DNA of 63,843 nucleotides from Schmidtea nova. Taxonomy: Eukaryota. The stretch spans positions 69,750,158-69,814,000 of the forward strand of contig CM097884.1 in assembly GCA_044892505.1 (NCBI GenBank). Direction: 5' to 3'. Shown here in pieces: positions 546-60,759 of the stretch. Below the pieces are notes generated by a model that saw only the letters and a program-made list of their open reading frames with translations, did no database searches and had not been told where the DNA came from. The stretch's first letter is position 1. Each line of letters starts with the position of its first letter. The translations under genes were made by a program, and so were the position numbers.

Positions 546-1579
546 CTAAATATTTTTATCTATAAATTAAATAAAGAACGTATTTAAAATTAAACAAATA
601 TGTCTAGTAATAATCAGGGCTAGATCAAGGGATGTTACATGCCCTAGACCCTTTTGTATTTGGTCTTCCTCATCAATTCCTCATAGAAAAGACAATTGAG
701 TACAATGCTTTCCTAGCAATATCGTGTGAAATAAAAATGAAGACAAAAGTAGAAATATCATAAATATAGACACTCATTCTAAGATTTTTTAATCCACATA
801 TTTCTGAATTTTAATGTTAGAATGATCTTCAAATTTATATAGGATATTCGTTTGTACTAGATATTCAGTTGCTAATGAGAAGGCACAATTAGAGATATCG
901 GACCGTGATGGATGTAGACACACTCATACCCCGTTATACGGCCGCTCACATTCAATTTACAACCCAAAAATCTTCAATATACGAGTAGGGGATAGTGAGC
1001 TTTCTGGGCCAAGTCATTTATCCCTAAACTGTGTATATTACATAATAATCACACAGTTCCCCGTTAAATAAAGTTACGTTATTGATATGTAAGCATTACA
1101 TAATTATTTCATAATTATTATGCAGTAAATGAGATGTTACGTAATTTTATATAAAACTTTAAATTCTTGCATAATACAATAATTATTTTACAACTGATGA
1201 TGTAATACTGAAATTTATTAATTTTTATTTATTTTTTCATAATTTTTACAAAAAATATTTAAAAATATAATTTTTTCAAAATTTTTTCCAAAACTTTCAA
1301 AATTGCTCAGATTTAAATAATTTTTATACCAATCTACTGAGAATTCAATGACGAACAAAAAAGGATCAAAAAGTAAAAACATGAAAAATTGGTCTTCTCC
1401 GGCAAATTTAACATGAAAAAACCTTACTTGGTTAAAAATGTTTAAAATTCAAGAACTTTTACATTTAAATAATCACAATTTAACGCTCAACAATAAAAAG
1501 TAATATTAACTAGAAAAACAACAAAAAACACAAAGTATTTAAAAAAAATAAAACTTTATTTAAATAAATCTTCTCATCT

Positions 1580-3464
1580 TCAGGCAAATTGTTCATCAGC
1601 AGCATCTTCACGCACCCCCTCCATAACCACATCAATTCCCTTATAATGTCCATAAGACAGACTAACATTTTTTCCTACCCAAAGTCTTTTGTCGTCAAGA
1701 TTAGTCAAGGCAATCTTAGAAGATTTATTAGTAAAGAGTTGATGATTCTTACTAACAATTCTCGACTGATTAACAGAAACTATTGAATTATTATTATAAC
1801 AATCCAGATACGACTGATGATTCAGTTTAGTATCCTTCAATGTTATACCCTTAGCCTTAATGCACTCTTCATCACCTAAAAAAATATAACACTTTGGCCA
1901 AAGAAACACCCACTCATCATACTTGAATCCTTTATTCTCGTCTTTGAATTTACCAATGACGGAATCTAGGGTTTTCGAGTTCAAGGTATGATCTGGGTCA
2001 TAATTCGAAGTATCTAATAACCTATCCCTAACCATAGCAGATAAAAGAATATCCAACTTACAATTCTTAACTTCCAAGAAGAAAGAATCTGTATCACCAG
2101 CAACGATGTTAATTTCGCAGTTGAATTCATTACGATATTTTTGTAATTTTTCATACTGCAGTTGATACATCCTAAGTTTAGATAAATCCAGTACAGTTTG
2201 GCCAATGTAGCTGGGTCTATCTAAACACACAGAGTCCTTATTAAGCAAGACAGAAAGTAGGTCATCGTCAATTGTATAAGTTTTTTAAAGGTAGGTTTTG
2301 AAGTATATGTAATCAGTTTTGATTCTGAATTACATAGTCGTAAATTGAGTCGTTTTTTAAGATTTTCAACAGTTTTCCCATAAATATTATTATTCAAGAG
2401 TTTGTAATAGTTTTTATCTAAAGCCGTAGAAGAAGCTGCCCTAAGTTCAGTGTTCGTATCAATATATTTTTTAAAGATAGGTTTCTGTTTGTACTGAACA
2501 GCCCGATGAACTCGTGTTATTTTAACACCCAAAGAAACAAAAAGCTTGAGAAGCCTCCAATGAACAACATAGTTGAACTTTGGATAATGCGTAAGCATTA
2601 ACTTCTCAACTTTTGAACCGGGAGCACACATTTTCTCTGCTGCTACCGGGAAATCATTTAATTTATCGTGAATTTCTGAAGGGATTTCAAGATCCACTTC
2701 AAAAGTCACGCCATAAGTCAAAATAACCAAATCAGCATCCATTAATTTTATTTATTTATTTAATTTATTTTGATCTGTGATCCAACTTAATTCCCCATAA
2801 GGTAATTTTTGAATTAAAGCCCACACGTATAAATTATTTTTGTCAATATATAAAAGTTCAGTCGTTTCGGAGGATACTACATGATGCTTGTTGACAAATG
2901 TCAAACCACCACGGATCCCCCCTTCGAAAAAATTATAAATCTCCATATCCTGGAGCAACTCAATAGGTTCATCCAAAGTAATAAGCGCAGAAGCCCACGA
3001 CATACCTGGAATCCCCAAGAAATTCAAAGGCTCAAGTCTATTGTGAGCTATAAATTTAGCCCTAAACTGTTGAAAGAAATCAGCAAGAAGAAAAACATCC
3101 AGTTTTAGGTAGACCATCAGATAGTCACACAGAATTTGACACTGGGATTCTCTCCAAATCACCTATGCCTTGTCATATTCGTCTTGTTTAACACCTTCCC
3201 ATTTTGGTGGCAACTCATAAGTGTTGTTAAGTATTTCTAAAGATGTTGCAAAATCATAAGGAAAAATACCCTTACAATCAACAATAGTCCCGGTGAATTC
3301 AGATCTAGTCAAAGGCAAACAAGTAAGAGTCTTAACGGCGTCATTTAAGCTAGAGTTAACAAACTGGAGAGAATCGATGAATTTAATAGTCAAATCACCA
3401 ACCCTTGCAGATAAAGTTAAAAATTTTTCGCTAGTTGTAGGAATACAAGAAATTTTCCAAGTTT
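1580..3464 (-). pseudogene. Protein-primed family B DNA polymerase (Polinton pPolB), ExoII to C-terminus, disrupted
   Basis: Motifs FIDS, KGIFPY, IRGGLT, YIDKNNLY, KLLNNNIYGK, LDLSKLRMY, GDTDSF, GKFKDE, KAKG, DDKR, YGHY are spread over ORFs 3163-3393, 2752-3162, 2221-2742 and 1580-2248. Confidence 0.92.
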
Positions 3465-4176
3465 CATTATTTAAAGGGCTATGACTTGCACAATATTCTT
3501 AAATGTGGTTTGGCTAATTTCAAAACTTGGATAATTTCTTGTATTCCTACAACTAGCGGACTCTGTGTGTTTAAATAGCTACATTGGTCAAACTCTACTG
3601 GATTTATCTAAACTTAGGATGTATCAACTCCAGAATGAAGAAATACAAAAATATCGTAATGAATTCAACTGTGAGATTGGCATAGTCGCTGGTGATACAT
3701 ATTCTTTCTTCTTGGAAGTTAAGAATTGTAAGTTGGATATTCTTTTATCTGCTATGGTTAGGGATAGGTTATTAGATACTCTGAATTATGACCCAAATCA
3801 TACCTTGAACTCGAAAACCCTAGATTCCGTCATTGGTAAATTCAAAGACGAGAATAAAGGATTCAAGTATGATGAGTGGGTGTTTCTTAGGCCAGTGTTA
3901 TATTTTTTAGGTGATGAAGAGTGCACTAAGGCTAAGGGTATAACATTGAAGGATACTAAACTGAATCATCAGTCGTATCTGGATTGTTATAATAATAATT
4001 CAATAGTTTCTGTTAATCAGTCGAGAATTGTTAGTAAGAATCATCAACTCTTTACTAATAAATCTTCTAAGATTGCCTTGACTAATCTTGACGACAAAAG
4101 ACTTTGGGTAGGAAAAAATGTTAGTCTGTCTTATGGACATTATAAGGGAATTGATGTGGTTATGGGGGGTGCGTGA
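3465..4176 (+). pseudogene. Second, internally deleted pPolB copy in opposite orientation
   Basis: 3465-3558 encodes HYLKGYDLHNIL...ISCIPTTS (ExoII) and is fused directly to the C-terminal DSVCLN...SYGHY segment, which is the reverse complement of 1580-2236. Confidence 0.88.
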
Positions 4177-5338
4177 AGATGCTGCTGATGAATAATTTGC
4201 CTGAAGATGAGAAGATTTATTTAAATAAAGTTTTATTTTTTTTTAAAATACTTTGTGTTTTTTGTTGTTTTTCTAGTTAATATTACTTTTTATTGTTGAG
4301 CGTTAAATTGTGATTATTTAAATGTAAAAGTTCTTGAATTTTAACCATTTTTAACCAAGTAAGGTTTTTTCATGTTAAATTTGCCGGAGAAGACCAATTT
4401 TTCATGTTTTTACTTTTTGACCCTTTTTTGTTCGCCATTGAATTCTCAGTAGATTGGTATAAAAATTATTTAAATCTGAGCATTTTTGAAAGTTTTGGAA
4501 AAAATTTTGAAAAAATTAATTTATTTTATATTTTTTGTAAAAATATGAAAAAATAAATAAAAATTAATAAATTTCAGTAGTACATCATAATTTGCATAAA
4601 AATTTATATGAAGTTACGTAACATCCAATTTGCTGCATAATGATTACGTAGTAACGGCGCAATGGTTACGCAATGATAAGATAATAATTATGCGATAATT
4701 ACGTAATAACAACGTAATGAATACGTAATGGTTACATTATATAAAAAGCAATACGAAATTTTGGGGGTGGGTGGGGGAACTGTATAATATATACAGTCTA
4801 GGGAAAAATGGCTTGGTCCAGAAACCTCACTATCCCCTACTTATACGGCTATCAAAACAGGCAAAAACGAATACTTACTAACAAAAAAGGCTGATATGAT
4901 GTTTGGATTGTTTCATTAAACGGCATTTCGCTTTATGGACGATTTTTTAGGAACGTATCTAGCGCGTAAAACAAGGTATTGGTATTGGAGTTATTTGTAA
5001 TGATTTACTCTTTTACTTTGCAAATTTTTTTAAAAACTATATTTTTCTTTTGTTTTAATTTGATACATTAGACTAATTTGACCAATTAGAATATGATTTT
5101 GAGTGGAAATATCTGGTGTCATATAGAAATTATAAAGAAAATTGAAATCTTAAAGTTTGATTGCCTTTTTTTCAAAAAAATAGAAAGTTTTATTTTAGCA
5201 ACTTCAAACATATGAATTTAACAATTAAAATTCTTTCAAAAACACATTATACTTCTAATAGCCCAGCGGTTTTTGTCTGTTTGTGCGTAACGCTAAATCA
5301 AAGTAATATAAATATTTTTAATAAAAATAAATAAATAA

Positions 5339-5702: not shown

Positions 5703-6211
5703 TCGGTAGTGGGGTTACTGGATATCCCATCAGAATCTGAAATTTGATGCATAACGTTACCGATGAATTGCATGAGAATAGAAATCAACAGTTAGACTAA
5801 ATTCACAGGTTAATTGTTGATTAAATATTAGGAAATATGTTTAAAAGACCTCGAAGTAGTAAAGTTGATAAAGGCCGCGAATGAAACTACTGATTATTTG
5901 TAATCGACATCTGATGATGAAATAGCGATAGAAATCACGTAATAGAGGTCCATAATGATACTTATAAACAAAAATAACTTCAGATATGCTAGATAAGTTC
6001 AGAATGTGAAAATGACAGCCGGATATTCAACTGATTAATGACATCATTACTTTATTTGTATTCACATAAATCAAATTTTGATTTTTCCCATGTAAATTTT
6101 GATACTAAAATAACTTTCGAAAACAATTTTAGTTTATTTCAGTATAATTGAATTAGAAAATATTCGGACTTATTATTATTTCCACGACTTTTCCATCATA
6201 TATTGAGGTGG

Positions 6212-6423
6212 AGACTACTGAAAGAATACATTGTATTCTTTAATCCTTACTTTATTGACATTGTAAAATCTATAGTGTAGGATCTACACTGTAGATTATA
6301 CAATGTCGCTATATTACACCTACATCTACGGTCAATATAAATTTCATTATATGGAAGAGGGGTTCATTTAAAATTTCCTAGGCTTGAAGGAGGTCGCTAT
6401 ATGAAAACGTTTAAGAAGCCCTG
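6212..6423 (-). mobile_element. Truncated copy of the hAT MITE at 7435-7672
   Basis: Reverse complement of about 7435-7645, ending in AAGAAGCCCTG. Confidence 0.8.
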
Positions 6424-6681
6424 ATATTTGTATGTTACCATAAATTTTTAAAGATATTTATTTCCAAGTCTCTCATAAAACAAAACGTAGAAACTCTAAA
6501 ACATCCAATGTTATATATTAATCAAGTAGAAATCAATAAATTTTAATTTATAACTTCCAGAATGTCTATCAGTAACTGAAATCGAGACTTTAAATTTATT
6601 GAAAAACATTTGGCAGATGTCTGTTTGTTTTTAAAAAAGTAATAAAAGATAAAGCTTTGTGATACCAAGTGCAAAACCCCA

Positions 6682-6723
6682 ATAGCAAACTAGTTTCGAG
6701 CTTTTGGCTCTCGTCAGTGCTAT
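6682..6723 (-). ncRNA. Type I minimal hammerhead ribozyme (Penelope/retrozyme type)
   Basis: ATAGCA-CTGACGA-GAGC(CAAAA)GCTC-GAAA-CTAG-TT-TGCTAT. Perfect 6-bp stem I, 4-bp stem II, palindromic stem III and GUU cleavage triplet. Confidence 0.85.
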
Positions 6724-7434
6724 GCTGGAGACGCGAAAATTGCTCTTCAAATGATTGAAATAATAAAGTTAAGGCAGTCAGGTGCGCTTGCAAACAGTTT
6801 CTGTTGAACAATTTTAGTGCGCCGAAGCGAATATATATTTTCAGTAAAATGTCACTGAGTGAAAATAATTCTTGAAGGAAAATGCTATGGAAATGATACA
6901 AGAACAATATGTGTCTATATGTTTTAAAGTTTTGGACATAAGACATGCTCAAACAGCATGAGAGGTAGTCAGTAAACCGTTACAATGTGACTTCAATCCG
7001 ATGCCATAAAAACGCATCAAAATTAAATATTGTCAGGATAAGATGCATTACTAAAGTGGTATAGGATTCGACAAAAGAATTCTTTCTCTTTCATTTACAT
7101 CTCAAATCTATGTAATTTTAGTAAATTTTTTATGTTTAAGGAGTCACACGATTGTTATTTAGCGAAATTTAAAACTTGAAAGGAAGAGAAATAGTTGTTA
7201 ATGATTACATATATAACCTACAGAATCTTTGCGCAAAGTTTTATCAAAATTACATAATTTTCAAAAGATTTACATGCTGAGTCACGCTTGCAATGCAAGT
7301 CATGACGCTTTTTAGAAGTAGTTATGTTTGCGAGTAATTATTTTCCACAATGAAAATAATTAAAGGCGACAATAGATCGAAGCTAAATGAGGTAGGATTG
7401 GAAAGCTACGTGCGAGTTGTTGTGTCGTCTATAT

Positions 7435-7672
7435 CAGGGCTTCTTAAACTTTTCCATATAGCGACCCCCCTCAAGTCTAGGAAATTTTAAATGAACCCCT
7501 CTTCCATATAATGAAATTTATATTGACCGTAGATGTAGGTGTAATATCGCGACATTGTATAATCTACAGTGTAGATTCTACACTATAGATTTTACAATGT
7601 CAATAAAGTAAGGATTAAAGAATACAATGTATTCTTTCAGTAGTATCGCGACCCACAGTTTAAGAAGCCCTG
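7435..7672. mobile_element. hAT-family MITE
   Basis: TIRs CAGGGCTTCTTAAAC / GTTTAAGAAGCCCTG; exact 8-bp TSD GTCTATAT. Confidence 0.92.
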
Positions 7673-13549: not shown

Positions 13550-16482
13550 AGGCTTGTATTTATTGGGTCAGTATTTTTTTACATTTTTGGTCAGTATTTT
13601 AAATAAATGGTTAGTATTTATATTAAAATGTCAGTACGTAATACAAATGGTCAGTATTACAGCGATCAGTATAAAAACGATCAGTATTTTAATTAAAATG
13701 CAGATAGATATATTAATTGGTCAGTATTATAAATAAATGGTCAGAAATTAAAATTATGTATCAGTATCTGCAAATATAAATGTCAGTAACAATAATTTTA
13801 AATAAAATTTAAAAAAACCTCATTTGGAATTTTATACTTATGTCTTATTTTTATTATTATAATTAATTTTTATAAAAAGCTATATTGTCTCATTGATAGT
13901 TTAAATTAAAATATATTTTATAAGAAATTTATTGAAAATTCTAGTAATGTGGTTTAATGTATAGGAGTCATTATTTTTCTTGTTGCAAATTTCAGAATTT
14001 TGTAAATTTAAATAATTTCTTTTTTATATGCACTAAGAATATTATTTTAATGAAGTAGCCAGTTTTGATTGCTATATTCTGAAAATAATCGCAGACTTTT
14101 GTCAAAATTACGCATTTTATAACAAAATCAGTGAATTGACATTAGTCAATTTGTCCGCTGTGTTACTCGAATGTGTAATGTTATTTAAATATTAAATCAT
14201 CTCCGTTTAAGATAAAATTAAAAAAAATAACATAATTAAAATATATATTATAAATTCAAGTCTCCAACTTATTTTATACTAATATATTTGTTGTTCTTGA
14301 TTATTAATGATGATTGTTTTATTTGTTTATTTCTGAAAAACCATTTTTGTTTATTATTTGTTTGTTTGAAATTTAAAATAATTGAAGGTTCAAAATGGCA
14401 TCAAATATAGACGAATATCTATCATCAGATGATGAAGAAATAAATGAGATTTTAACTATTAAAACTCGTAGGACAAAAATACAACACAAATGGAATATGG
14501 TTTCAACATTTAATAGCAAAGAAGATGCTATGATTGTTATAAATTCAGAAGAAATTTGGAGTTTCCATTATCGGAATAATACGGCTGATGGAGGTAAAGC
14601 TTATTATCGATGTAACATGGTAAAAAGACGCGGACAACAATGCGAGGCTGGAATATATTTGCTGTTTAATAATAACAACGATAGTGTAACAATGTTTAGA
14701 GCAGAAAACAAGCATACGCATGGAAACTCACAGCAACAAACTTTAAAGCTTTCAAATCAGATGAAAGAAGAAATTAAAAAGCTTTTTAAACTAAAAATAA
14801 AACCAAAAAAAATTTTAGAAATATTAAATGATAAAGGTTTAAAGCTTAAAAACAAGACACAAGTTTCTAATTACTTAGTGCAATTAAGAAAAGAAGCATA
14901 TGGGCCAGCCGCAATAAGCCTTGGAGAATTTGAGCAGTGGTGTATTGATCATAGCGAAATTCCAGATTCTGATGAATTACCTTTTGTGGTGTCACATCAA
15001 GTGAAATATTGTGATGAATTAGATGATGCAGAGGATGAATACAATGAGGGTTCGCACTTCAGAGTTTTAATTTCAACAAAACGTTTGCTTAAAAACTGTA
15101 GCATGTCGAACAAAATTCATATTGATGCCACTTATAAACTGGTATGGGAAGGTATGCCAGTTATAATTGTTGGAACTACAGATCTTGATCGTCATTTTCA
15201 TCCGATTGGTATTGCTGTATGTACGAATGAAAAAAAAGCAGATTTTCAATTTATTTTTGAAACAATTAAGAAAATAAATGAAGAAATTGAATATTTAATA
15301 TCAGATGCATCAAATGCCATTCGTAATGCATTCATCGCAGTATTTGGTGTGAATAAACGTTTAATTATGTGTTGGGCTCATATGCGACGCAATGTTACGA
15401 AAAAAGTTGAGTCTCTTGTTGAAAAAAGCATGAGAAAGGAAATAATAGATGACATCGATACATTACAGTTAGCTTCAAGCAAGCAAATATTTGATAAAGC
15501 ATTACCATTGTTTATCAAGAAATGGCTTCAGAAAAGCCAAACTGAGTTTATTAACTACATGAAACTTCAATGGTTTACAACACATCAATATTGGTACGAA
15601 GGTGCTGCACAATACACGCCTTCTACGAACAACTCATTGAAATCTTTCAATTTAGTGGTAAAAAAAGAAGAAACATTTCGTGAACGACTACCACTCTCAA
15701 GATTTCTTGAATTAATCAATAAATCTGTAGCAAAGTGGTCAAACGAATATTCATCCAACAGTCGAATATTCAATACTTCAACTACAATTGAATTGTCCCA
15801 ATGGACAAAAGGATATCAATGGGCAAAAACTAATGTAAACGTCTCATCAGCAATTTCTAACGATTCAATACAATATTTTTGTCCATCAAATCAGCAATGT
15901 AAGGCATCAGAAGAGGAAGCAGCATATGTATTGGAAATGCGTTGGAAAACATTTGATCAATTCAAACGTAAAGGTTTCAAAGTTTGGATTATAAATCTGC
16001 CAAAAGAAGCAGAAAACTGGATGCATGGTTGCTGTACTTGTCCAGAATTCTTAAAGAAATTTATATGTTTTCATATAATAGGTTTAGCTATTCGCTTAAA
16101 ATATATTAAACCTCCTCCAGCAGCTAAACAAATACCAATAGGGCAAAAACGTTCGAGGGGAAGGCCAAAATTAGCAACGCGTGCGCTTTTAATTGATTAA
16201 AAAAATTTATTTATATTATAAAAATAAATACTATCATATTTTTTTATGTTATATTTTAAGGTATTAAATTTTTTCTAAAAAAAAATAACTGCTCTTTTAT
16301 TGTTTATACAGACCAAAAATTTTAAATTAACTTACCAAAAAAGAAAATTATACTGTCCAATACACAAAAATATACTGACACTTAATTATTTATACCGACC
16401 AAAATATTATTTTATACTGATATTTTATTTAATAAAATACCGACCAATTATTAAAAAAAATACTGACCAAATAAATAAACCT
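13550..16482 (+). mobile_element. Full-length MULE (Mutator-like) DNA transposon
   Basis: Long imperfect TIRs built from GGTCAGTATT/AATACTGACC repeats. 9-bp TSD AATATGTTT / CATATGTTT with 1 mismatch. Confidence 0.88.
14395..16200 (+). CDS. MULE transposase, 601 aa
   Basis: N-terminal YYRC..C..HTH zinc finger, HIDATYKL (D1), ISDASNAI (D2), CWAH, TNNSLKSFN (E position is K), SWIM finger CTC-x7-CFH, C-terminal RGRPK AT-hook. Confidence 0.95.
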   Translation: MASNIDEYLSSDDEEINEILTIKTRRTKIQHKWNMVSTFNSKEDAMIVINSEEIWSFHYRNNTADGGKAYYRCNMVKRRGQQCEAGIYLLFNNNNDSVTMFRAENKHTHGNSQQQTLKLSNQMKEEIKKLFKLKIKPKKILEILNDKGLKLKNKTQVSNYLVQLRKEAYGPAAISLGEFEQWCIDHSEIPDSDELPFVVSHQVKYCDELDDAEDEYNEGSHFRVLISTKRLLKNCSMSNKIHIDATYKLVWEGMPVIIVGTTDLDRHFHPIGIAVCTNEKKADFQFIFETIKKINEEIEYLISDASNAIRNAFIAVFGVNKRLIMCWAHMRRNVTKKVESLVEKSMRKEIIDDIDTLQLASSKQIFDKALPLFIKKWLQKSQTEFINYMKLQWFTTHQYWYEGAAQYTPSTNNSLKSFNLVVKKEETFRERLPLSRFLELINKSVAKWSNEYSSNSRIFNTSTTIELSQWTKGYQWAKTNVNVSSAISNDSIQYFCPSNQQCKASEEEAAYVLEMRWKTFDQFKRKGFKVWIINLPKEAENWMHGCCTCPEFLKKFICFHIIGLAIRLKYIKPPPAAKQIPIGQKRSRGRPKLATRALLID

Positions 16483-22818: not shown

Positions 22819-22934
22819 TATCTATTTTTGTAAATTGTCTGTCCTCTTCGTGTATTCTTTCATTTCGCCTTGTATTTTTTTGAAATTTACATTGCCTCGG
22901 AATTCTTGCCTCTCTTTGTCACATATTAAACATT

Positions 22935-23796
22935 TGTTGAGTATTTGTTGGTTAAGTCAGTGTTTATCTGACTCCTCAGTGTTCTTAGTAAAATCAATGA
23001 ACAAGACCCAACACAGTAACTTTTATTAATAATCAATCTAATACACAATTTTCTTTACAATTTATTTAACTGCTTTTCAGTATTCTCTGGAAGGCACAGG
23101 GATATATCTCCCAACGGCAGATGTCCCTTTCTGATGCGCGTACTAACAAATGAATTCAAATTAAAATTTCACTGACCTAGTCGCTCTTTTCAATTTTCAC
23201 ACTTCGACCGTAACTGGCAGTTTTGTTGATTCTGCCTCTCTTTTTATATGAAATTTTGCGAATTCATTTATTTGTTTTTCAAATGGTAAATCGCCCGTTA
23301 AAGGCTATTAATCGTCAATTTTTAATCTTGACATTCCAATTTAGATTTTGAGGCAATTTAGATTCTAATGTTATTTGCCTTCTGCCGGGAACATTATTTT
23401 TCAAGGCAATTTACTTGTCACCTCGGGTTCTCCTCATCGCTCGGGTTATCCATTGGCTCGGGTTTTTCTCATCACTCGGGTTCTCCATTGGCTCGGGTAT
23501 TACGTTAGCTCGGGCTTTCCATTAGCCAAATAATTCTTAATTAATATTTTAATATTTTTAATTATTTCTTTCTGGAGACCCCCATCGATTTTATTTTTAT
23601 ATATTTGAATTCGTCTCATCAATGGGCATACATCCATACCAATTTCCCCGCCATATGTTGATTTTCAATTTTCTTAATTTTTTAATTAATGTTTTTGTAT
23701 TTTAATTAATTTGTAGATTTTTGTGTTTTTCTTAAATTCTATTTAATTATTTTAAATTTTTACTTTATTTTAAGTCACTTATGACAAACCCCAACA
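22935..23796 (-). mobile_element. Solo LTR (Gypsy-type)
   Basis: TG...CA with inverted termini TGTTG(A/G)G...CCCAACA, 4-bp TSD CATT; reverse complement of 24318-25213. Confidence 0.8.
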
Positions 23797-24317
23797 CATT
23801 TAATGTCAAGTGGACTTTCAAATCTTCTATGTCTTCTTTCACCACAGTAAAAATAGTCACCTACTGCTACGTGTTTATTTGCTTGGGAGGAAACCTCTAC
23901 TTTTATTATAGTCTTTTTACTATAATCTTCATAGACACAGTTTGTAATTTTCCTTTAGAACTATTTACTTTCTTTCTTTTATACGTAATATTTTACTTGG
24001 GAATTGTTCGCTTTTTTCTTGACGGTATTCTAAGTGTTGTTCTGATTTTCGTCATATTCATCTCTCATGATATTCATCTCTCGTGATATTCATCTCTCTT
24101 TGATTGCTAATGGTTTATCAGTTCATTTTATCGTCCTCTTGGTGACAGTGTTCGTATTGCATATTGCATTTTGGGCTGAACATTCCTCTATTTTCATTTT
24201 AATAAGATTTATAGCCAGGGAGTTGGGAAAGATGCTAGACATAATTTCCATCATAGTTATCATATTTATGCACAACAGAGTTCATAAATTTCCAAACAAG
24301 AATAAAGCTTTTAAAAT

Positions 24318-25213
24318 TGTTGGGGTTTGGTAGAAGTGACTCAGAAGTTAAATGAAAATTTAAAAAATTAAGTAGAAATTAATAAAAACACAGAAAACTA
24401 CAAATTAATTAAAATACAAAAACATTAATTAAAAAATTAAGAAAATTGAAAATCAACATATGGCGGGTAAATTGGTATGGGTGTATGCCGATTGATGAGA
24501 CGAATTCAAATATATAAAGATAAAATCGATGGGGGTCTCCAGAAAGAATTAATTAAAAAATGAAAATATTAATTAAGAATTAATTGGCTAATGGAAAGCC
24601 CGAGCTAACGTAAAACCCGAGCCAATGTAGAACCCGAGTGATGAGGAAAACTCGAACCAATGGAGAACCTGAGCGATGAGGAGAACCCGAAGTGACAAGT
24701 TAATTGCCTTGAAAATTAATGTTCCAGGCAGAAGGCAAATGTCAATTAGCATCTAAATTACCTCAGATTGTAAATTGGAATTTCAAGATTAAAAATTGAC
24801 GGTTTAATGGCCTTTAACGAGCAATTTACCATTTGAACGAAAGAAAACAAATAAATCAACTCTCAAAATTTTACATAAAAAGAGAGGTAAAATCAGAAAA
24901 AACGCCAGTTATGGTCGAAGCAAAAAGCGTCTTGAATCAAGGAAAGTGTGAAAAGTAAAAAGAGCAACGCGATCATTGATACTCTAATTTAAATTCATTT
25001 GTTAACACGCGCACCAGAAAGGGACATCTGCCGTTGGGAGACATATCCCTGCGCGTTTGTGAAAAGTCTAAAAAGCAGTTAAAAAATTTTTGTAAAGACA
25101 ATTATGCATTAGATTGATTATTAATAAAGGTTACTGTGTTGGGTCTTGCTCATTTATTTTAATAATAACTGACGAGTAAGATTAAACTGACTTAACCATT
25201 TAAATACCCAACA
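24318..25213 (+). mobile_element. Solo LTR (Gypsy-type)
   Basis: TGTTGGG...CCCAACA termini, 4-bp TSD AAAT. Confidence 0.82.
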
Positions 25214-25244
25214 AAATATATTTATTTCCAATCAACATGAAATT

Positions 25245-30781: not shown

Positions 30782-31486
30782 CTAGTTGGTCGAGAGGGCT
30801 TTCAACGCAGCTTTTTGCAGAACCTTTGAGAAAGATTTAAACATTTGCTGAGGCACTGAGTAATGAATTCGTTCGGTAAAAACACCATAAAGTAATAAAG
30901 CGTTAAATGAATAGAAATTTTCAGAAAATATCAAAGTTTTCGTTCGCGGTAAAGAGTTGACAAAGTTTGAATTATAAGTAGGATCATCTGTGAAATAAAA
31001 GATCTCTCGGCGATTCTCGTAATTATATGAGGTCATATTCGAAGATGTTAAAGCTAGGAAAAAATTAAGCGTTTCTCTGAATTGTTGCATTAATACACGG
31101 TGAAACATGTTGGAATTCTTTTTCTGAAGAGAATAAATTAACATCGGAATCAGTTCATCTCGTAGCATGTCGTTGATCATTTGAAGATTTCCCAAGAGGC
31201 GAGCTTCCAAATTTACTCCCGGAATAATTAGTTGAACCATTTCCATTTCAAATGTATTTTTAATAGTTCTCAAATATGTTATGAATCGTTTGACATATGT
31301 ACTATGAGATACCCCGTCAATTATGACTTTTAGTTCTTTATTCTCGGTAAAGAACTTGTAGGATTTAATCGTGTGGGTTTGTGGCTTGGCATGGGATCGC
31401 TTAAGGCATGATTTTCCTGGTTGTTTCTGTAACGTTGTAGCGATTTCTAAATCAGGATCAACGCCTAAAATTAAATTCAGAAACAA
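30782..31486 (-). CDS. Orphan 234-aa ORF, probably the frameshifted C-terminal domain of 31458-32738
   Basis: Overlaps the upstream ORF by 29 nt at a T-run (AATTTTAGG); globular-looking composition; no recognised family. Confidence 0.5.
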   Translation of the reverse strand: MFLNLILGVDPDLEIATTLQKQPGKSCLKRSHAKPQTHTIKSYKFFTENKELKVIIDGVSHSTYVKRFITYLRTIKNTFEMEMVQLIIPGVNLEARLLGNLQMINDMLRDELIPMLIYSLQKKNSNMFHRVLMQQFRETLNFFLALTSSNMTSYNYENRREIFYFTDDPTYNSNFVNSLPRTKTLIFSENFYSFNALLLYGVFTERIHYSVPQQMFKSFSKVLQKAALKALSTN

Positions 31487-32738
31487 TTAAACGACGAATA
31501 ATGTTACCTGCTTCCCAATCTCGGTCCTCTGGAATGTATTCTTCTTGTTGAGTAACATTGGTAGGAAAGTACATTGTTTGGTCAAATATATCCTCTCTGG
31601 CGTCCTCAAATTCCAGCTCTTCTTCTTGTTCACCTGGATAATCTAAGTTTTCCGGTTGTTCGATCACTTGAACATCATTTTGCATTTGATCAGAAAACGT
31701 CGCGGGTTGTTGTTCAAGTGGGCATATTTGCTGGCTTTCATCTATATTCTGAATTGGATATTGGTCTTCTACGATGTTTTGAATTCCAAATTGGGTTTCG
31801 TTTACATTCGGGATTTCATACTGATTTTCATCAGTGAATTCAGTGGGTTGTGGAATATTTTCTTCAACCATCAAAGTTTCTAAAACCTTATCAGCTTTCT
31901 TTTTACCTTTTGAACTTGCTGCGGTTGCAACTTTCTTTCTTGTTTTGCGCTGAGGCTTTTCAGGAGCAGGTTCAATATTTTGAATGTCATACTGATGTTC
32001 ATCAGTATATTCAGTAACTGGTTGAACGTTATGGTCGCAGGTCACGTTTTCTAGATTTTCTGGTGGTATATCTTGTTTGGTTTTTCGAGTTCTTGTTGTT
32101 GCAGCTCTTTTTCTTGTTTTAGGTTCAAGTTCCGTAAACGTTTCTGGGGTTTTTACTCCTCTGATTCTCGCACTTCTTTTTAAGGTTTTTGAATCGGTGG
32201 GTTCTATTTCGTCTTTCATTAAATATTGTGCTGTTTGCTCAATATTTGGAGTCTCCTGATCTATTTTAGATCTTGATTTGCTACGCTTTGCAACAGTTGA
32301 AACGACTTCATTTTCAATATCACTTTGAGTTTGTGGCTTTTTTCTCGTACGTTTAACGGCAGTTGGTACAACTTCATTTTCAGTACCAGCTTGCGCTTTT
32401 GGTCTTCCTCTGGTACGTTTAACTGCAGGTGAAACAACTTCCTTTTCAGAATCGTTTTCAATTTTCGGTTTTGGTTTTGATTTACTAGCAGCTCTTGTTT
32501 TTTTCGTTTCAGCTCTAACTTCAGCACTAGCACTTGTAGAGGGTTCAGCATTAGCACTTGCAGAGGGTTGAGCTTCGTCACTTTTTGTTTTTTTACAGGC
32601 ACGAGGTTTTCTGTTATTAGCGTTTAAGTCGAAACATCTATATTTTTGAAAAATAACTGGATATTTTCTTTTAAAATCTTTGAAAATCTTTCTTCGTCTC
32701 GACGAGGTTGCAAAGGATTTCTTTTGTAAAATATGCAT
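31458..32738 (-). CDS. Orphan 426-aa low-complexity protein with basic repeats (RGRPK AT-hook-like) and Q/E-rich region
   Basis: 1.28 kb stop-free ORF in very AT-rich DNA; repeated EVV(S/P)xAVKR(T/S)R units. Confidence 0.65.
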   Translation of the reverse strand: MHILQKKSFATSSRRRKIFKDFKRKYPVIFQKYRCFDLNANNRKPRACKKTKSDEAQPSASANAEPSTSASAEVRAETKKTRAASKSKPKPKIENDSEKEVVSPAVKRTRGRPKAQAGTENEVVPTAVKRTRKKPQTQSDIENEVVSTVAKRSKSRSKIDQETPNIEQTAQYLMKDEIEPTDSKTLKRSARIRGVKTPETFTELEPKTRKRAATTRTRKTKQDIPPENLENVTCDHNVQPVTEYTDEHQYDIQNIEPAPEKPQRKTRKKVATAASSKGKKKADKVLETLMVEENIPQPTEFTDENQYEIPNVNETQFGIQNIVEDQYPIQNIDESQQICPLEQQPATFSDQMQNDVQVIEQPENLDYPGEQEEELEFEDAREDIFDQTMYFPTNVTQQEEYIPEDRDWEAGNIIRRLIVSEFNFRR

Positions 32739-40589: not shown

Positions 40590-40790
40590 AGTAGGGGATG
40601 GTGAGCGGTCTTGCACAAGCCATTTATCCCTAAACTATATATATATATATAACATAATAATAATAATGTAGTTTACACCCCGAAAATTACATATTACTTT
40701 ATATATTACGTAAACATTACGGAAACACACCGTAAATTACGTAATCATGTCGTAATCATTTCATAATACTTTATGCTCCGTAACAATGCC
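40590..40790 (+). mobile_element. Isolated Polinton terminus inserted into a TGTTGAGG LTR-like repeat
   Basis: AGTAGGGGATGGTGAGC...CAAGCCATTTATCCCTAAACT matches the termini at 984 and 4841 and is followed by ATTACGTAA subterminal repeats. Confidence 0.75.
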
Positions 40791-41094
40791 GAAATATTTT
40801 ATATTCCACAATAATGCCATGACATTATAAAATTGTCATAATTATCTTTTTTCACCTTTGATCTTTTTTTATTATTATTATCAATAATTCTCATAATGAC
40901 TATAGATCAAAATTTTTTTTTTTTATAAACAATAACACAATATTTCGGCACAGCCTTTATCAAGTGTGTATTTCTATCGTTATATTTACTTAATCCTAAA
41001 TAGTAGCCTTAATTATTTTTTTAATATTTTATAATGATTTTATTGGATGAAAAAATTTTTATTTTATTTTAATTTTTTTGTGCGAATTGAATGT

Positions 41095-42640
41095 TGATGG
41101 ACGGTTTGTATTTTTTTATGAAAAAAGTCTCGGAAGCTAATCTTTGTAATGAATTTTTGAATCACTCTTGTAGGATCTGGCATTTTGTTTCTTCTATAGA
41201 TGGAGTTGTTTTATGTACTTTTTTCCCAGTGTTCGTAATAATTACTGGTTTTGATTTTAGTATGTTCATTAAGTCGGGTGCGAAAAGTTCTATGTGTTTC
41301 TCCTATGTAAGTAGCGTCACATTTTTGACAAGAAAGTATCCATTTTGGAGGAATCGTATTTTGAAGTTTTCTAATGTTTCTTGTATTTTGTTTGCGTCTG
41401 AACAGTTTCTTATGGCTCTTTTTCTTTCTCCTATTAGTAATGCGATTTTGCGTTGAAGTGGAACGTGGCTTTTCCATGGGAGGATATGACCGCTATGTAA
41501 ACCTTTAGAATATAGCTCGGTGTTTGCATTTAGTGTATCTTGGCCTTTTGTGAAACTTACCATGGTATCTAAAAACGGTATTTTACCTTCTGTGTTCGGT
41601 GTTTCAAAAGTAAATTGTATGTTGGTGTTAGTAGAATTTGCGTGTGATAGGATTTGATTGAGAGGGATTGTGGAGACTATGAAGATGTCGTCGATGTATC
41701 GTTTCCAGAAAAGTATTTTGTCCCCAAAAAAAGATATGATCTTAGATTCTATAAAGTTCATGTAGAAGATGGCTAAGATGGGAGAAAGGTTATTACCCAT
41801 GGCTAATCCATGAATTTGTTTGAATGGTTTTTCTTTAATTATGACAGTATCTGAATTTATTGCTAATTTTAGAAGTTCTATAAAGTTTTGTTTAGTTAAG
41901 TCTGCGAGGTCAGTATTGGCTTTATGAGTTTCAAAGAAAGAAGCTGCGATATCGAAAATGTTATTCTCTCCGTGAAGAGGAATAGATCCGTAAAGATTGG
42001 AAACGTCAAGAGATCCCCAGAAGTACTGTTGTCCTGAGTTTAACGGAAGAGACGTATTTGTAATTTCGGAGACGAATTCAGTTGTGTTTTTAAGATGAGA
42101 AGGAACCAAAGGCAAAAGTGTTTTTAGAATTTCTGAAAGAACTTTAGAAAGTGTTGTGGAAGGAGTGTCAACTGCAGATACAAGAGGTCTACCTTTTAAA
42201 GGACTTTTGTGATCTTTAGGTAACATAGTCATATTACTAGGTAAAGGCTCACTGCAGTTGCATTTTAAAAGTAAATCTTTGATTTGAAGGTTAATTTGTT
42301 TATTTGCAAGTGTTGAAAGTTTCTTATTGTATAAAATCTGAGTCGATGCAGGTAAGATTATTTTGTTTATCGGTTCATAGTTCGAGAGATGTTCTTCAAA
42401 TAGAGTATTGTATTGTTCTGTGTCAAGAGCAATTAGTCGATTTGTTTTATCTGATGGAAGAATTGTGAAGTCTTTGGAATTCTTAATTTTCTTTATGTTT
42501 GAAGTGAAAGAATTTTGTGTTGAGCAATGTTTTTCAAGAAAGATAATTTGTTCTCTGACTAAAGTTTTGTCACCGGTCACCCACCACAACGACTGGCATG
42601 TTTCAATAAATAAAGGGTGAAAACGGAACCCACTCATCAT
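41095..42640 (-). mobile_element. Penelope-like element (RT + GIY-YIG endonuclease), frameshifted
   Basis: LPKDHK..GRPLVS, SLDVSNLYGSIP, GLAMGNNLSP, RYIDDIF, IPFLD in ORF 41303-42640; CQKCDATYIGETHR...RLNEH in ORF 41211-41477. Confidence 0.93.
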
Positions 42641-42937
42641 AATATATTTTTAAATAAAACACAAATAAAATTTTTATTTTCTTTTGCTATAAAGCCTCTG
42701 ATTTTATCTAACATTAATGAATAATTTAATTTTCAAATTAATTACCATTTCCAGAGGTTTTGCCCAGGCCTTTGAAATAATTATCTAAAAAAAAGTTTAA
42801 ATTAATAATAAATATCAAATTTGTTTTAATTAAGTGAAATGCGTATATTTAAAAATAATAAAACTTTTTCCTAAATAAACTATTAAATAAAAATGGCAAT
42901 TTATTCATATAAATAAGAGAACACCATTTTTTAAATA

Positions 42938-42986
42938 TATTAATGCAATATATTTCAACAGCTTAGCTGTCATCATCAGGCTTCCC
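42938..42986 (-). ncRNA. Hammerhead ribozyme in the 3' end (pLTR) of the Penelope element at 43.1-44.3 kb
   Basis: GGAAGC-CTGATGA-T-GACAGC(TAA)GCTGTT-GAAA-TATA-TT-GCATT; palindromic stem III, extra U after A9, imperfect stem I. Confidence 0.65.
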
Positions 42987-43129
42987 ACAATCTCAATAAA
43001 ATAAAAATTGATCTTATTTATACGCTTATTAGTGATTACATAATTATATGTGTATAATCCAATAAAACTTTTATTTACCCTAGTAAAATTAATTAAACAC
43101 TCTCAAAATGCATGTAGATATTGCATTTT

Positions 43130-44330
43130 GTATATTTATTTTTGAATTAAATGATTTTATCATCAAATCCTCACAATTCACACGTTCATAATAATTTTTA
43201 AAACCCCTAGAAAGTATTTTGAAATTAAAAATATCAATGCTCTTCTTGCAAGTCTAATGCTCAATAATGTTACTCTTTCCGCTCTTTCTGTCATGTTCTT
43301 GAACTCGTGTATAGAGATGACGGACAGTCTCTCGAATGTATGTGGCATTACACCCATTACAAGTAAAACGATGTACAAGATCAGAACACAGACCAAATGG
43401 CGTCACAGATTTATTACTGAACATGTCCCAAACTTTGCAAGACTTAGAAATTATTTTAACATTAGTATTTCCAATATATTTTATAATAGATTTTTTTAAA
43501 TTTACAAATCCCTCAGAAAACGGTAAAACTATAACAGAACAAATGCAATCATTCAAGTTACTTTTATTTATTTCATTATTATTATTACAATCAACACCAT
43601 CATTCATTCCCATAACAACATCACCTGTTTCAATCAAAGGAGCACTATCAGAGGTATTGAACGGATCAACACCATGAAAAATTTTTTCATCAATCACATT
43701 CAACTTATTAATACACTTATCAACAGTTTCAATCACCATTCGTTGCAAGATACATTTTGAATATCCATTATTCTGTAGTAATTTAAGTAATTTAACAATA
43801 CTATTTATAGATTTACAATAAGTTGACGGCAATGTCCAAGAACGATAAACCAATCCCCTTATCATATTTCTTTTATATTTAAAATCACAAAAGCTTTCCG
43901 GTGATGTATACAAACCAGTATCTGTTGTTTTCCTATAAATTTCCGTTTCAAAATGTTTCTCTTTCTTTTCAATCAACAAATCAAGAAATGATATTTTAGA
44001 ATTAATTTCTTCTTCAAAAGTAAATTTAATATTTTTATGCAAATTATTTATATAATACAAAAAAACTCAACATGTTCTTTATTATTAAATACAAGAAAAA
44101 TATCATCAACATAACGTTTATATACTAAGAGTTTATTCATACTACAATATATAAATTTATTTTCTAAACTTGACATAAAAATATATGCCAGTGTAGGAGC
44201 TAAAGGTGAACCCATGGCAACACCATCAATTTGCTTATACCATTGATTATTAAAGATAAAATGGACATTAGAAGTAGCAAATGTCAAAAGTTTACGAAAA
44301 GCAACAACATCAATAATATTATGAAGTGAA
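43130..44330 (-). mobile_element. 5'-truncated Penelope-like element of a second family
   Basis: YKQIDGVAMGSPLAP, RYVDDIF, ISFLDLLI, YRKTTDT; FTCNGCNATYIRETVRHLYTRVQEH (GIY-YIG). Confidence 0.92.
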
Positions 44331-53894: not shown

Positions 53895-54216
53895 NNNNNN
53901 NNNNNNNNNNNNNNNNNNNNNNNNNNNNNNNNNNNNNNNNNNNNNNNNNNNNNNNNNNNNNNNNNNNNNNNNNNNNNNNNNNNNNNNNNNNNNNNNNNNN
54001 NNNNNNNNNNNNNNNNNNNNNNNNNNNNNNNNNNNNNNNNNNNNNNNNNNNNNNNNNNNNNNNNNNNNNNNNNNNNNNNNNNNNNNNNNNNNNNNNNNNN
54101 NNNNNNNNNNNNNNNNNNNNNNNNNNNNNNNNNNNNNNNNNNNNNNNNNNNNNNNNNNNNNNNNNNNNNNNNNNNNNNNNNNNNNNNNNNNNNNNNNNNN
54201 NNNNNNNNNNNNNNNN
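53895..54216. other. Assembly gap
   Basis: Run of N. Confidence 1.
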
Positions 54217-55570: not shown

Positions 55571-55758
55571 TGTTATATCTCTAAATGAATTAACTAATTT
55601 ATATAAATAAATTACCACGATTCGGAAATAATAATTCTAATAATAAATCAATAAATTACGATATTCAAAAATCTCTATTTTACAACACAATATTCAAACA
55701 ATATTCTAATCATTATAATATTAAACGAATTTGTAATATTATTAATTCACATATAACA
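55571..55758 (-). repeat. 3' LTR
   Basis: Preceded on the minus strand by PPT GACGGGGGAA (55759-55768). Confidence 0.97.
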
Positions 55759-55768
55759 TTCCCCCGTC

Positions 55769-57130
55769 TTATTCGGCTCTCAACTCGAAATCGTCGTATA
55801 ATCTCGGCTTCACATTTCTATTGTGTCTTTTCGGGTATCTTCCTGTGGTCTCTTTATTCTCTTCCGTTGACGTTGCTTCGTTAACCTCTTCCAATCTCTC
55901 CGATTCCTTTGTTCTTGACCATATACTTGTTCCCCAACTGTTCATCTCTATCTTTGCTATTTCTGATCTTTCTGGGATAATCTTAATCTGGTTAAAATTA
56001 CGCTGTATTATCTTCCCATCAGCCTCGCTTCTTAATTTAAAAGTCCAATCATTTACTTTCTCCAGTATTTCATATGGGCCGCAGTATTTCTCCCCAAATC
56101 CTTGTTTCTGAACTACTTTTACTAATGCCGAATCTCCTATTTTGACGTCTTTATTCCATCTATTTCGATTGTAAATCTTTTCGTTATATACTCTCACTTT
56201 ATCAGTTCTCTTTTTTACTTCCTCTTCTATGTTCGTTAACTCTGTTCTCAGTTTTCTCATGAATTCTCCGTAGTCTTGTGATCCTATTATGTCGCTTGTT
56301 TCTTCTCTTACTTTTGGTGTTCTGCCGAACATTAATTCTATCGGTTTATATCCAGTACTTTTATGGACTGTGTTCCTTACTCCATATTCTACCGTGTGTA
56401 CTGTTGAATCCCATTCCTTCGTCTTCCTGTCGAACATGGTTGCTGCCATCATACTTTTTGCTGTTTGGAACATTCTTTCGATTAAGCCGTCAGATTGTGG
56501 GTAGTACGGTGATGTACAGGTTTTCTTTGTTCCTATCAGACTGCACAAACCCTTAAACATATTTGACTCAAAATTCTTTCCCTGATCTGAGTGAATCCTT
56601 TCTGGTATACCGAATTTTGTGATCCATTCTTCCCATATTGCTCTAGCCACTGTTTCTGTCGTAATTTCTGGGAGTGGTATTAGACATGGATATTTTGTGA
56701 AGTAGTCAATTAATCCCAGAATGTATCTATTTCCTTTTTTTGTCATTGGAAAAGGTCCGGTAATGTCTATTCCCAAAATTTCTAAAGGTCTACTGCTTAT
56801 AAAACTCTGTAGTGGTGCTCTAACTCTTCCGTTTATATACTTGTTGTGTTGACAGGCTATACATCGGTTTACTCTATCTATAACGTTCTCGTTGATATTT
56901 GGCCAATAGTATCTTTCTTTGGCTGCTCTCGTAGTTCTTTCAATGCCAACATGTCCCAATTCCCGATGTAACTCGTCAATATATCTATTTCTTTCTTCTT
57001 CTGGTAGTATTTTCCTATGTCCTTCTGCTTTCTTAATCATAAGATTTCCTTCACTGACATACATAAGCTCCCTTTTCTCCATAGTTCTAAGTTTTTCCGG
57101 TTTTGTTCTTTTCTCCCTTGCTGTATCCAA
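55769..57130 (-). CDS. Integrase (HHCC, DDE core, GPY motif), frameshifted from pol
   Basis: HRELGH..YYWP..CIAC, GIDITGP, IHSDQG, SDGLIERMF, YCGPYEI. Confidence 0.95.
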   Translation of the reverse strand: MDTAREKRTKPEKLRTMEKRELMYVSEGNLMIKKAEGHRKILPEEERNRYIDELHRELGHVGIERTTRAAKERYYWPNINENVIDRVNRCIACQHNKYINGRVRAPLQSFISSRPLEILGIDITGPFPMTKKGNRYILGLIDYFTKYPCLIPLPEITTETVARAIWEEWITKFGIPERIHSDQGKNFESNMFKGLCSLIGTKKTCTSPYYPQSDGLIERMFQTAKSMMAATMFDRKTKEWDSTVHTVEYGVRNTVHKSTGYKPIELMFGRTPKVREETSDIIGSQDYGEFMRKLRTELTNIEEEVKKRTDKVRVYNEKIYNRNRWNKDVKIGDSALVKVVQKQGFGEKYCGPYEILEKVNDWTFKLRSEADGKIIQRNFNQIKIIPERSEIAKIEMNSWGTSIWSRTKESERLEEVNEATSTEENKETTGRYPKRHNRNVKPRLYDDFELRAE

Positions 57131-59238: not shown

Positions 59239-59978
59239 CTGAGTCCGATATACGCATGTGGGAATACCCCGTTCATTATTTCGAATTTGGGTTTGGTCGT
59301 CCTTGGACCCAAACTCAGTGACAATACTAATTGTCCTCGGCTTTTTCCTTTACTTCCATCTGCGTACGCTACTCTAACGTTTGAATCCCTGACTTCTATT
59401 GTCGAATCTCGTTGTATTATTTTCTCTGCCAGTTCTTCACTAATGACATTCAGATCTGCTCCCGTATCGAATAGTGCTTTAACTTCTTCTCCTTGGATTT
59501 TGCAACAAATGATTGGCTTGTTGGTTGCCCTTTCCGATCGTCTTTGCGATATTACTGTTGTGGCTTTTTTTATATATTTTTCCTTTGGTTTGTCGCCATT
59601 ACCTCCGATAAACTGTGCCCACTTCTCTTCCATTGTTAGCTTACTTTTCTTTGTCTTTTTTTCTTTTTGTGTAATCGCTTTCATAATTCGTTCTGATGGG
59701 TCGTCTTCTTCGTATTCGCTATCTGAACTTGTCCCTTGTACGGATACTTCTTCTAATTGTCGTACTCTTCTATAATCGTCCCTCTTGTTTGGGCATTCTC
59801 TACTTATATGACCCTTTCTATTACAATTAAAACATGTTACCTTTTCTCGATACTCTCGGCAATTGCTCGATATGTCCTGTTTTCTTGCATCGGAAGCATC
59901 TTTCGTTCTTCTTTTCTTCGCAGAAACGTGCAATATGACCGGTTTTGCCGCAATTGTAACATTCCACTTGTTGTCCAT
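59124..59978 (-). CDS. Gag C-terminus (third CCHC knuckle) and aspartic protease
   Basis: CFNCNRKGHISREC; ALFDTGADLNVIS. Confidence 0.93.
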   Translation of the reverse strand: MDNKWNVTIAAKPVILHVSAKKRRTKDASDARKQDISSNCREYREKVTCFNCNRKGHISRECPNKRDDYRRVRQLEEVSVQGTSSDSEYEEDDPSERIMKAITQKEKKTKKSKLTMEEKWAQFIGGNGDKPKEKYIKKATTVISQRRSERATNKPIICCKIQGEEVKALFDTGADLNVISEELAEKIIQRDSTIEVRDSNVRVAYADGSKGKSRGQLVLSLSLGPRTTKPKFEIMNGVFPHAYIGLRCMKELGVIMKPTEDCIEVKGIQIPFLSKTSIPSSLNC

Positions 59979-60759
59979 TGTGGAATTCTTTTCTACTTCT
60001 ATCTTGGTTATTCGGTTCTTTTAAACTTTTTATAATTTCCTGAAGTCTCTTAATCTCTTCTCTTAATTCTTGTAACTCCAATGTGGCATTTTTATCTACC
60101 CGCATTTGCCTAGCATTGTTGTTTCCTTTCGCTTGATTAATTCCTTTCCCGTCTCTCCATGCATTATAGCTCTCTTCTCGTAGTTGTGATAATCTGTATT
60201 CTGGAATTATTTCTTTCTGGTCATCTTCTTCCTTTATTAGTTCGACAGCTTCTTCTATGGTTTTGGGCCGCAATATTTTCAATGTCTTTCTCATGATTTC
60301 ACTTTTTAAACCTTCTCTAAAGATCATTAATTCTATTCTGTTTCGATCTTCTTTTGTGTCTTTCGTCGTTCTTTTTACCCGTCTACTGAAATCTACTATC
60401 GTCTCTCCTTCGTCCTGTTTGGTCGATAGAAAAATTCTAACCTTCTTGGCTCTTGACTCCTTTATTGGGAACATTTCTGTTAATGTTTTTGTGTACCACT
60501 CTACTGTGTTGTTTTCTTCTCCATACGTACTTTTTGATTCCACCTCGAATAAGATTTCTGGATCAAAATATCTTCTTAATAATCGGACTTTGTAAGCCTC
60601 TTCCATCTCAAACATCGCCAAAAAGGATGTTATATTCTCGAGATGTGTCCTCACATCCCTTTTACACTTCCTTGTGTATAGATATAGGGATCCCTCTATC
60701 TCTTGTGCCAATAAATTTTTGACAAAAGAATTGTCAAACGTAACTGCTCGTGACGCCAT
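59827..60759 (-). CDS. Gag (capsid and CCHC knuckles), frameshifted inside knuckle 2
   Basis: CYNCGKTGHIARFC, then CFRCKKTGHI continuing as SSNC in the next frame. Confidence 0.92.
   Translation of the reverse strand: MASRAVTFDNSFVKNLLAQEIEGSLYLYTRKCKRDVRTHLENITSFLAMFEMEEAYKVRLLRRYFDPEILFEVESKSTYGEENNTVEWYTKTLTEMFPIKESRAKKVRIFLSTKQDEGETIVDFSRRVKRTTKDTKEDRNRIELMIFREGLKSEIMRKTLKILRPKTIEEAVELIKEEDDQKEIIPEYRLSQLREESYNAWRDGKGINQAKGNNNARQMRVDKNATLELQELREEIKRLQEIIKSLKEPNNQDRSRKEFHNGQQVECYNCGKTGHIARFCEEKKNERCFRCKKTGHIEQLPRVSRKGNMF
60744..60758 (-). promoter_or_regulatory. Primer binding site, probably tRNA-Ser
   Basis: TGGCGTCACGAGCAG directly after the 5' LTR; complementary to a ...CTGCTCGTGACGCCA 3' end resembling tRNA-Ser(CGA) from memory. 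Confidence 0.75.

Follow-up and report, generated by a model that had tools for sequence, protein, structure and literature searches.

A head-to-head duplicated polymerase end in a short Polinton remnant of Schmidtea nova: a candidate helper-dependent fold-back derivative

Introduction

How can one small transposon come to carry the same polymerase end twice, head-to-head, between a single pair of target-site copies? This question is raised by an element of 3858 bp (984-4841, with no N inside) in a stretch of DNA from Schmidtea nova (assembly GCA_044892505.1, contig CM097884.1, 69,750,158-69,814,000, forward strand). The whole stretch analysed, 63,843 nt in length, is called the window hereafter, and all coordinates are window-based. 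The original prediction, made from the sequence of the window, described this element as a snap-back derivative of a Polinton, replicated outside the chromosome by strand displacement and integrated in trans as one unit.

Target-site duplications (TSDs) of 6 bp are typical of Polintons, whose end motif is given as (AGT)2, and their replication has been deduced from gene content and end motifs, by analogy with the jumping-back of adenoviruses (PMC8097293). Most genomic copies are described as defective fossils, 96% of them in vertebrates, and Polinton-linked chromosomal rearrangements have been reported (PMC11414722). The polymerase pPolB2, bearing an HNH domain, is treated in 10.1101/2023.08.22.554363, and further related literature includes PMC6431247, PMC3014272, PMC9415595 and PMC11161782. 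The junction at which the present element was born lies in coding sequence, which makes it legible at single-base level: it shows in which direction copying ran, which microhomology was used and in what order things happened, and the element may thus record how virus-like Polintons replicate.

Results

The element is bounded by an exact TSD, TATACG, which abuts its left end (978-983) and its right end (4842-4847), as had been predicted; two 6-mers drawn at random from the window are identical with a probability of 7.7e-4. Beyond the TSD, the flanks are not inverted copies of each other (7/30 matches), so that the inversion stops at the element ends, and neither flank matched elsewhere in the window. 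Both termini carry the AGTAGGGGAT end and start with AGTAGG, i.e., five of the six letters of (AGT)2, their first 16 nt being identical. In the left terminus (984-1205, + strand), this end is followed by two short stem-loops and a TTACG-rich subterminal tract; the right terminus (4580-4841, - strand), recognised by alignment and by its match to the end motif, has a TTACG-rich subterminal tract as well. With a 6-bp TSD, inverted AGT-type termini and the pPolB remnant described below, the element displays the features expected of a Polinton.

This remnant (1580-3464, - strand), identified by PF03175 and by its identity to homologues, is truncated at its 5' side and broken, and extends from just after ExoII to the C-terminus. 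PF03175 matched three of the four open reading frame (ORF) pieces of the left arm, one of them above the curated cut-off. The left-arm gene lacks its 5' half and is interrupted by in-frame stops at 3163-3165 and 2752-2754 and by a frameshift near 2266-2284, its pieces being 51-69% identical to intact pPolBs. A search with the C-terminal piece returned 297 proteins at E <= 0.001, the top match being 69% identical, and many of these homologues carry both PF03175 and the endonuclease VII domain PF02945. A second homologue search yielded six fragments and no close family member. In metagenome contigs, 34 of 117 pattern hits were confirmed as relatives, and the longest of these loci hold rve integrase, A32-type ATPase and adenain-like genes, which identifies the relatives as Polintons and bears out the predicted Polinton derivation of the element; scans of viral contigs gave 11 and 101 pattern hits, none of which was confirmed as a relative. 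When 11 proteins from the relatives were compared with the window by tblastn, none matched inside the element, and the sole match in the window was the integrase of an LTR (long terminal repeat) retrotransposon at 56.3-56.9 kb. The element is thus no autonomous Polinton, which would hold an intact pPolB, an integrase and virion genes within 12-25 kb.

The two arms (984-2237 versus 4841-3558) align with 89.2% identity over 1298 columns. On the left, the terminus is followed by a near-identical part (1206-1990, - strand) comprising an AT-rich downstream region and the pPolB 3' end, then by an inner paired part (1991-2237, - strand) in which the left copy is mostly the homologue-like one. The pPolB core that comes next (2238-3428, - strand) is unpaired, as it is absent from the right arm. 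On the right, a second copy of the pPolB 3' end, degraded over its inner ~250 nt (3559-4176, + strand), leads to the right copy of the AT-rich region (4177-4579, + strand). The presence on both arms of the pPolB 3' end, the AT-rich region and an AGT terminus is therefore seen directly in the arm alignment, in agreement with the original prediction.

At the centre of the element, a 36-bp inverted repeat with one mismatch (3429-3464, - strand, and 3523-3558, + strand) encloses a loop of 58 nt (3465-3522, + strand) which holds the ExoII motif in the pPolB sense, according to the homologue alignment and to folding. The region 3429-3558 has a predicted fold of -35 kcal/mol (z -11), a stability reached by none of 200 shuffles. 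In the homologue alignment, 3462-3557 on the + strand corresponds to the ExoII region, and the gene resumes on the - strand from 3464 into the left arm. The strand switch is thus at 3464/3465, and the trinucleotide TTT at 3462-3464, common to both sides of the junction, encodes a Phe kept in all 54 homologues present at this column. On the other side of the repeat, a deletion junction at 3558/3559, with a 1-bp microhomology, marks the loss from the right arm of the equivalent of 2237-3428. The predicted strand switch, microhomology, repeat and loop all hold to the base, and the loss, put at about 1190 nt, was measured as 1192 nt.

The polarity of this junction is informative. Because the loop lies in native order with the right-hand repeat copy, the loop-bearing right arm would be the original strand and the left arm a copy primed from the 3-nt match, as far as can be deduced from the sequence. 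Since the left arm retains the 1192 nt, its template must have held them, which means either that the deletion followed the fold-back or that copying used a complementary strand that was still intact, for instance the parental strand after its displacement; most simply, the deletion would have come after the fold-back. Loop polarity and junction geometry hence support the proposed origin by an intramolecular-type fold-back, and the internal arms show what defines a snap-back form, namely one end duplicated head-to-head across a strand switch.

Divergence between the arms is, by contrast with what one copy-back followed by even decay would give, clearly a mosaic. The outer segment (984-1205) shows 37 substitutions over 195 aligned bases and seven indel events (19%, a value that depends on the alignment), and the ungapped first 53 nt of the termini differ by six substitutions (11%). 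The middle segment (1206-1990) has seven substitutions over 776 aligned bases (0.9%) and the inner one (1991-2237) 17 over 241 (7%), six changes in the latter being synonymous. Substitution rates differ between the middle and inner segments (p 1e-6, a contrast reached in none of 400 permutations with free breakpoints) and between the terminal 53 nt and the middle (p 6e-5). Substitutions are clustered, and indels reach ~28 nt. As the arms are mosaic, the two termini are not one recent self-copy. The proposal that both ends derive from one side of the parent is consequently upheld for the internal arms and not for the outer ~220-260 bp: two termini copied from a single end would be expected to be identical, and these show six differences in 53 nt plus large indels, against seven in 776 in the middle.

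The state of the coding sequence adds a second contrast. To score decay, the columns used were those that at least 80% of 85 homologues conserve. Departures number 17 among 124 such columns in the left core (2290-3162), one among 24 in the adjoining piece (3166-3462) and three among 93 in the left C-terminal piece; the loop piece departs at two of 15, the right inner piece at six of 55 and the right outer piece at none of 26. The core is thus more decayed than the paired C-terminal part, by a difference that was as large in none of 79 usable intact homologues (close kin left out), and a model of common decay for the two parts gave p 0.016, in a test chosen post hoc, after the data had been seen. 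The inner ~250 nt of the right pPolB copy contain a 6-nt deletion, an altered polymerase motif C and small deletions near 3890-3910. Ten amino-acid differences between the arms were scored, for which the left copy is homologue-like in seven cases and the right in one, two being ambiguous. The picture is therefore that of a decayed core, fresher and near-identical mid-arms, and two different termini. These termini look like different family variants, since they differ more than the near-intact pPolB 3' end could have decayed; their divergence by decay after insertion was rejected as a poor fit for the adjacent pPolB end, which departs at just three of 93 columns. Derivation of the right arm from a separate working lineage was likewise rejected as a sole explanation, seven of the ten differences running against the homologues on the right, where motif C is altered.

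A third end of the same Polinton family, with the terminal motif and a TTACG-rich tract, is present at 40590-40835 (+ strand), and the end motif has three matches in the window and none in 100 shuffles. Over 53 nt, this end has 9-10 mismatches from each element end; a stretch of 11 nt is common to it and the left end, and one of ~60 nt to it and the right end. Its similarity fades at ~200-245 bp, a different dispersed repeat comes after it, and it has no partner in the window. By eye, a GGGAT...ATCCC-type pairing and a second CT...AG stem can be drawn in all three ends (984-1062, 4768-4841 and 40590-40675), the stems differing in internal sequence, including one apparent two-sided change. These terminal stem-loops are modestly better than shuffles (z -2.9, -1.4 and -1.3), which constitutes a lead only.

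The layout of the parent was approached through the relatives, which are 34-65% identical, so that the layout in Schmidtea nova is not fixed by them. Thirteen of the 34 relative loci, with at least 1000 nt after pPolB, were informative. A virion module converges on pPolB in five (L001, L009, L010, L011 and L022), the ATPase follows it in two (L017 and L028), other ORFs in two (L013 and L023) and a convergent ORF of ~100 amino acids in two (L006 and L008), and nothing was recognised after pPolB in L002 and L018. A core gene also lies next to pPolB in three shorter loci (L016, L027 and L029). An end-like AGTAGGG motif occurs 1492 nt downstream of pPolB in L018 and an AGTAGT 1097 nt downstream in L008, both single-sided and possibly due to chance. 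A parent with pPolB pointing at a terminus, as had been supposed, is thus a minority layout among the relatives, hinted at in these two loci; a terminus-facing pPolB in the parent is possible, and an internal deletion may already have been present in that parent. In L002 (1-1519), a poly-C run and short tandem repeats stand at the contig start, followed 190 nt later by only the C-terminal ~440 amino acids of pPolB, and this locus is possibly another internally deleted Polinton. In L013, a dual-specificity phosphatase gene lies downstream of pPolB (2923-3234, - strand).

Elsewhere in the window, an LTR retrotransposon at 55571-60948 (- strand), which we take to be Ty3/Gypsy from its features, has gag/pol-like ORFs between two 190-bp LTRs, and the identity of these LTRs marks it as a recent insertion. 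An intact-looking Mutator-like element (MULE) transposase of 604 amino acids with FLYWCH and SWIM matches is encoded at 14386-16200 (+ strand), and two reverse-transcriptase-related ORFs, presumably Penelope-like, lie at 41303-44066 (- strand), with RVT_1 on the first. Two inverted repeats, at 6211-7647 (217-bp arms at 96% around 1 kb) and 22933-25215 (~910-bp arms at 84.5% around 0.5 kb), contain no Polinton end motif. Adjacent ORFs of 234 and 426 amino acids at 30782-32738 (- strand) had no Pfam match, the first giving only low-score Atlas leads. An acidic ORF of 273 amino acids at 62231-63052 (- strand) matched no family above the cut-off and nothing in the Atlas; its stop region resembles the sequence at the pPolB end (85% over 46 nt), in low-complexity sequence. 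A run of N at ~53900-54200, a scaffold gap, is far from the element.

Discussion

This work indicates that a polymerase end was duplicated by fold-back within a Polinton, and the question becomes that of the setting in which it happened. The reading which we favour, tentatively and with something close to an even chance, is that of a helper-dependent fold-back derivative which underwent recombination with intact copies and owed its integration to functions supplied in trans. From a mechanistic point of view, a strand growing from the polymerase-side end would have stopped at ExoII, the product being visible and its setting supposed. Through the 3-nt match, the stalled 3' end would then have re-primed 58 nt back, with either its own strand or the displaced single strand of the parent as template, and copying over ~2.5 kb back to the end would have produced a hairpin genome that carried two origins as well as two integrase ends. 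The loss of 1192 nt from the loop-bearing arm, which is seen in the sequence, would have turned a near-perfect palindrome into arms of 1.25 kb around a spacer of 1.3 kb. Persistence with no coding function would have let the core decay, as the mosaic suggests, and the arms may have swapped segments between themselves and with intact copies of the family, which would have left fresher arms and two different termini. Finally, the integrase of a helper would have inserted the derivative and made the 6-bp TSD.

The fold-back geometry with its polarity, and the exact TSD outside both AGT ends, are in line with this copy-back reading, as is a core more decayed than the paired arm (17/124 versus 3/93). 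This reading makes understandable why the arms are fresher than the core and why the termini differ from each other; in line with distinct end variants in the family, a third one is present at 40590. Several observations weigh against it. A single copy-back predicts identical termini and the observed ones differ, so that extra exchanges must be assumed, and ectopic gene conversion between chromosomal copies could yield the same mosaic. The bias of changes toward the right arm is weak (7 to 1, p 0.07), and the departure rate of the right inner piece is unexceptional, being reached by 11 of the 85 homologues in that span. Two independently joined ends would give an offset of at most 58 nt about 6% of the time by chance, a figure that the putative TTT microhomology at the junction point would lower further. 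A core gene lies next to the pPolB 3' end in seven of the 13 informative relatives, and the modules of vertebrate Mavericks usually point inward, exceptions being mentioned in the same source (PMC8097293). Lastly, the element is known from one copy, within a 63,843-nt window.

A quite possible alternative, which we nevertheless hold to be short of probable, is an in-place fold-back inversion within an already integrated full-length Polinton whose TSD had already been made, so that the element would be a fossil confined to a single locus and never replicated in its present shape. Following a break in pPolB, the end would fold via the 3-nt match, host repair would copy the polymerase side, the opposite terminal repeat would be joined by homology and the rest deleted, a later deletion then stabilising the palindrome. 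As such a fold-back keeps the original TSD, the TSD does not separate the two readings, and the claim that the unit was integrated after the fold-back is left without its intended support. The in-place route explains directly why the outer ~220-260 bp differ beside a 99% identical arm, the boundary near 1205 being the inner edge of the parent terminal repeat, and the similarity of the end at 40590 indeed fades at a comparable ~200-245 bp. Fold-back inversions in yeast have a median loop of 35.5 nt with wild-type MRE11 and SAE2 (PMC7467729) and are reported to be commonly resolved on a homologous stretch of the same chromosome that lies in the opposite orientation (PMC7467729, PMC10622511). The chance of the TSD surviving 11-19% divergence is 0.28-0.5. 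However, this route predicts even decay of pPolB along the left arm, while the paired part is at or below the homologue background and the core above it. Moreover, the 7% inner segment needs a further event, and either the two ends of the parent would already have been unlike each other or the element would have to be older than its intact pPolB 3' end suggests.

Improbable in our view is a right arm that pre-existed in inverted orientation, the arm being one of the parent's terminal repeats, long enough to contain genes, or else an end contributed by a second, different family member. The centre would then be one complex template switch (a jump, 94 nt copied, a strand switch), with no 2.5-kb copy-back and no deletion. 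Polintons with terminal repeats of ~2 kb holding duplicated genes have been described (10.1101/2025.02.07.637071), vertebrate terminal inverted repeats (TIRs) reach 1447 bp (PMC8097293), and short templated inversions at breaks are reported as common in yeast (PMC11724301). With a pre-existing arm, the difference between the termini would be explained, as would the 7% inner segment with its six synonymous changes. On the other hand, a simple short fold-back insertion on the left arm would leave the loop joined to that arm, whereas it is continuous with the repeat copy on the right; none of the 34 related loci, most of them short and none with both ends, has pPolB on both strands, and the 0.9% middle still requires a conversion event. 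Under each of the readings, conversion or recombination must have followed at least once. Libraries made by amplification or for long reads are known to contain artefactual palindromes. An artefact, be it two loci joined in error or a single chimeric fold-back read, is nevertheless very unlikely here: the arms differ by clustered substitutions and indels, the inversion ends at the very edge of the element, with the TSD and unrelated flank beyond it, and the element contains no N.

The extrachromosomal strand-displacement replication that had been proposed for this host does not follow from a single copy, for which integration as a unit, origin of both termini at one end and a terminus-facing parent are each no more than possible. 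We consider it rather unlikely that the element belongs to a multi-copy family of snap-back defective genomes of animal Polintons, born by template switch onto the displaced strand during protein-primed replication, refreshed by recombination with helpers and integrated in trans. The same junction at several loci, each with its own TSD, would mean that hairpin-type defective genomes were replicated and integrated in trans, and would suggest an origin for long palindromic Polinton dependants and for gene-containing TIRs. With such a family, defective-interfering dynamics would have left a fossil in the germline, and the single-stranded intermediate that has long been assumed in Polinton replication would be supported at the level of bases. 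A single-locus occurrence would correspond to an ordinary fold-back rearrangement in a dead transposon.

In the literature searched, which was limited in coverage and excluded supplements, we found no description of a snap-back or palindromic Polinton. The closest known system by sequence is the Polinton/Maverick (adintovirus-like) lineage with pPolB and endonuclease VII (HNH-type), which shares with the element its pPolB sequence, the 6-bp TSD and an end motif, (AGT)2, to which the AGTAG start of the element is close. In contrast to these transposons of 12-25 kb, the element measures 3.86 kb, has no integrase, ATPase, protease or capsid match, and carries a pPolB that is truncated, broken and duplicated head-to-head between imperfect termini. 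Non-autonomous Polintons are reportedly known, and are said to be recorded in Repbase and in the work of Kapitonov and Jurka in 2006. Like them, the element has Polinton ends and a 6-bp TSD with no working genes; it is small, and its birth junction is still readable inside pPolB. The lepidopteran polintons with ~2-kb gene-containing TIRs (10.1101/2025.02.07.637071) also have coding sequence duplicated in both inverted arms; as described there, these elements have their full length, with capsid and protease genes duplicated in their entirety, whereas the present one keeps two copies of a polymerase fragment and has lost the remainder. Chromosomal fold-back inversions of yeast (PMC7467729, PMC10622511) resemble the present case in the hairpin formed at a short microhomology, the loop of tens of bases and the resolution on an oppositely oriented homologue, but here the whole event is enclosed by a pair of transposon ends with their TSD. 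Finally, adeno-associated virus (AAV) provides a precedent in a DNA virus (PMC8235507), its snap-back genomes being of symmetric and asymmetric kinds, with one genome end duplicated head-to-head, an asymmetric loop and dependence on helper proteins. Replication was demonstrated for the AAV forms, whose sequences were obtained from virions, whereas the Polinton derivative is known from one chromosomal copy with mosaic arms.

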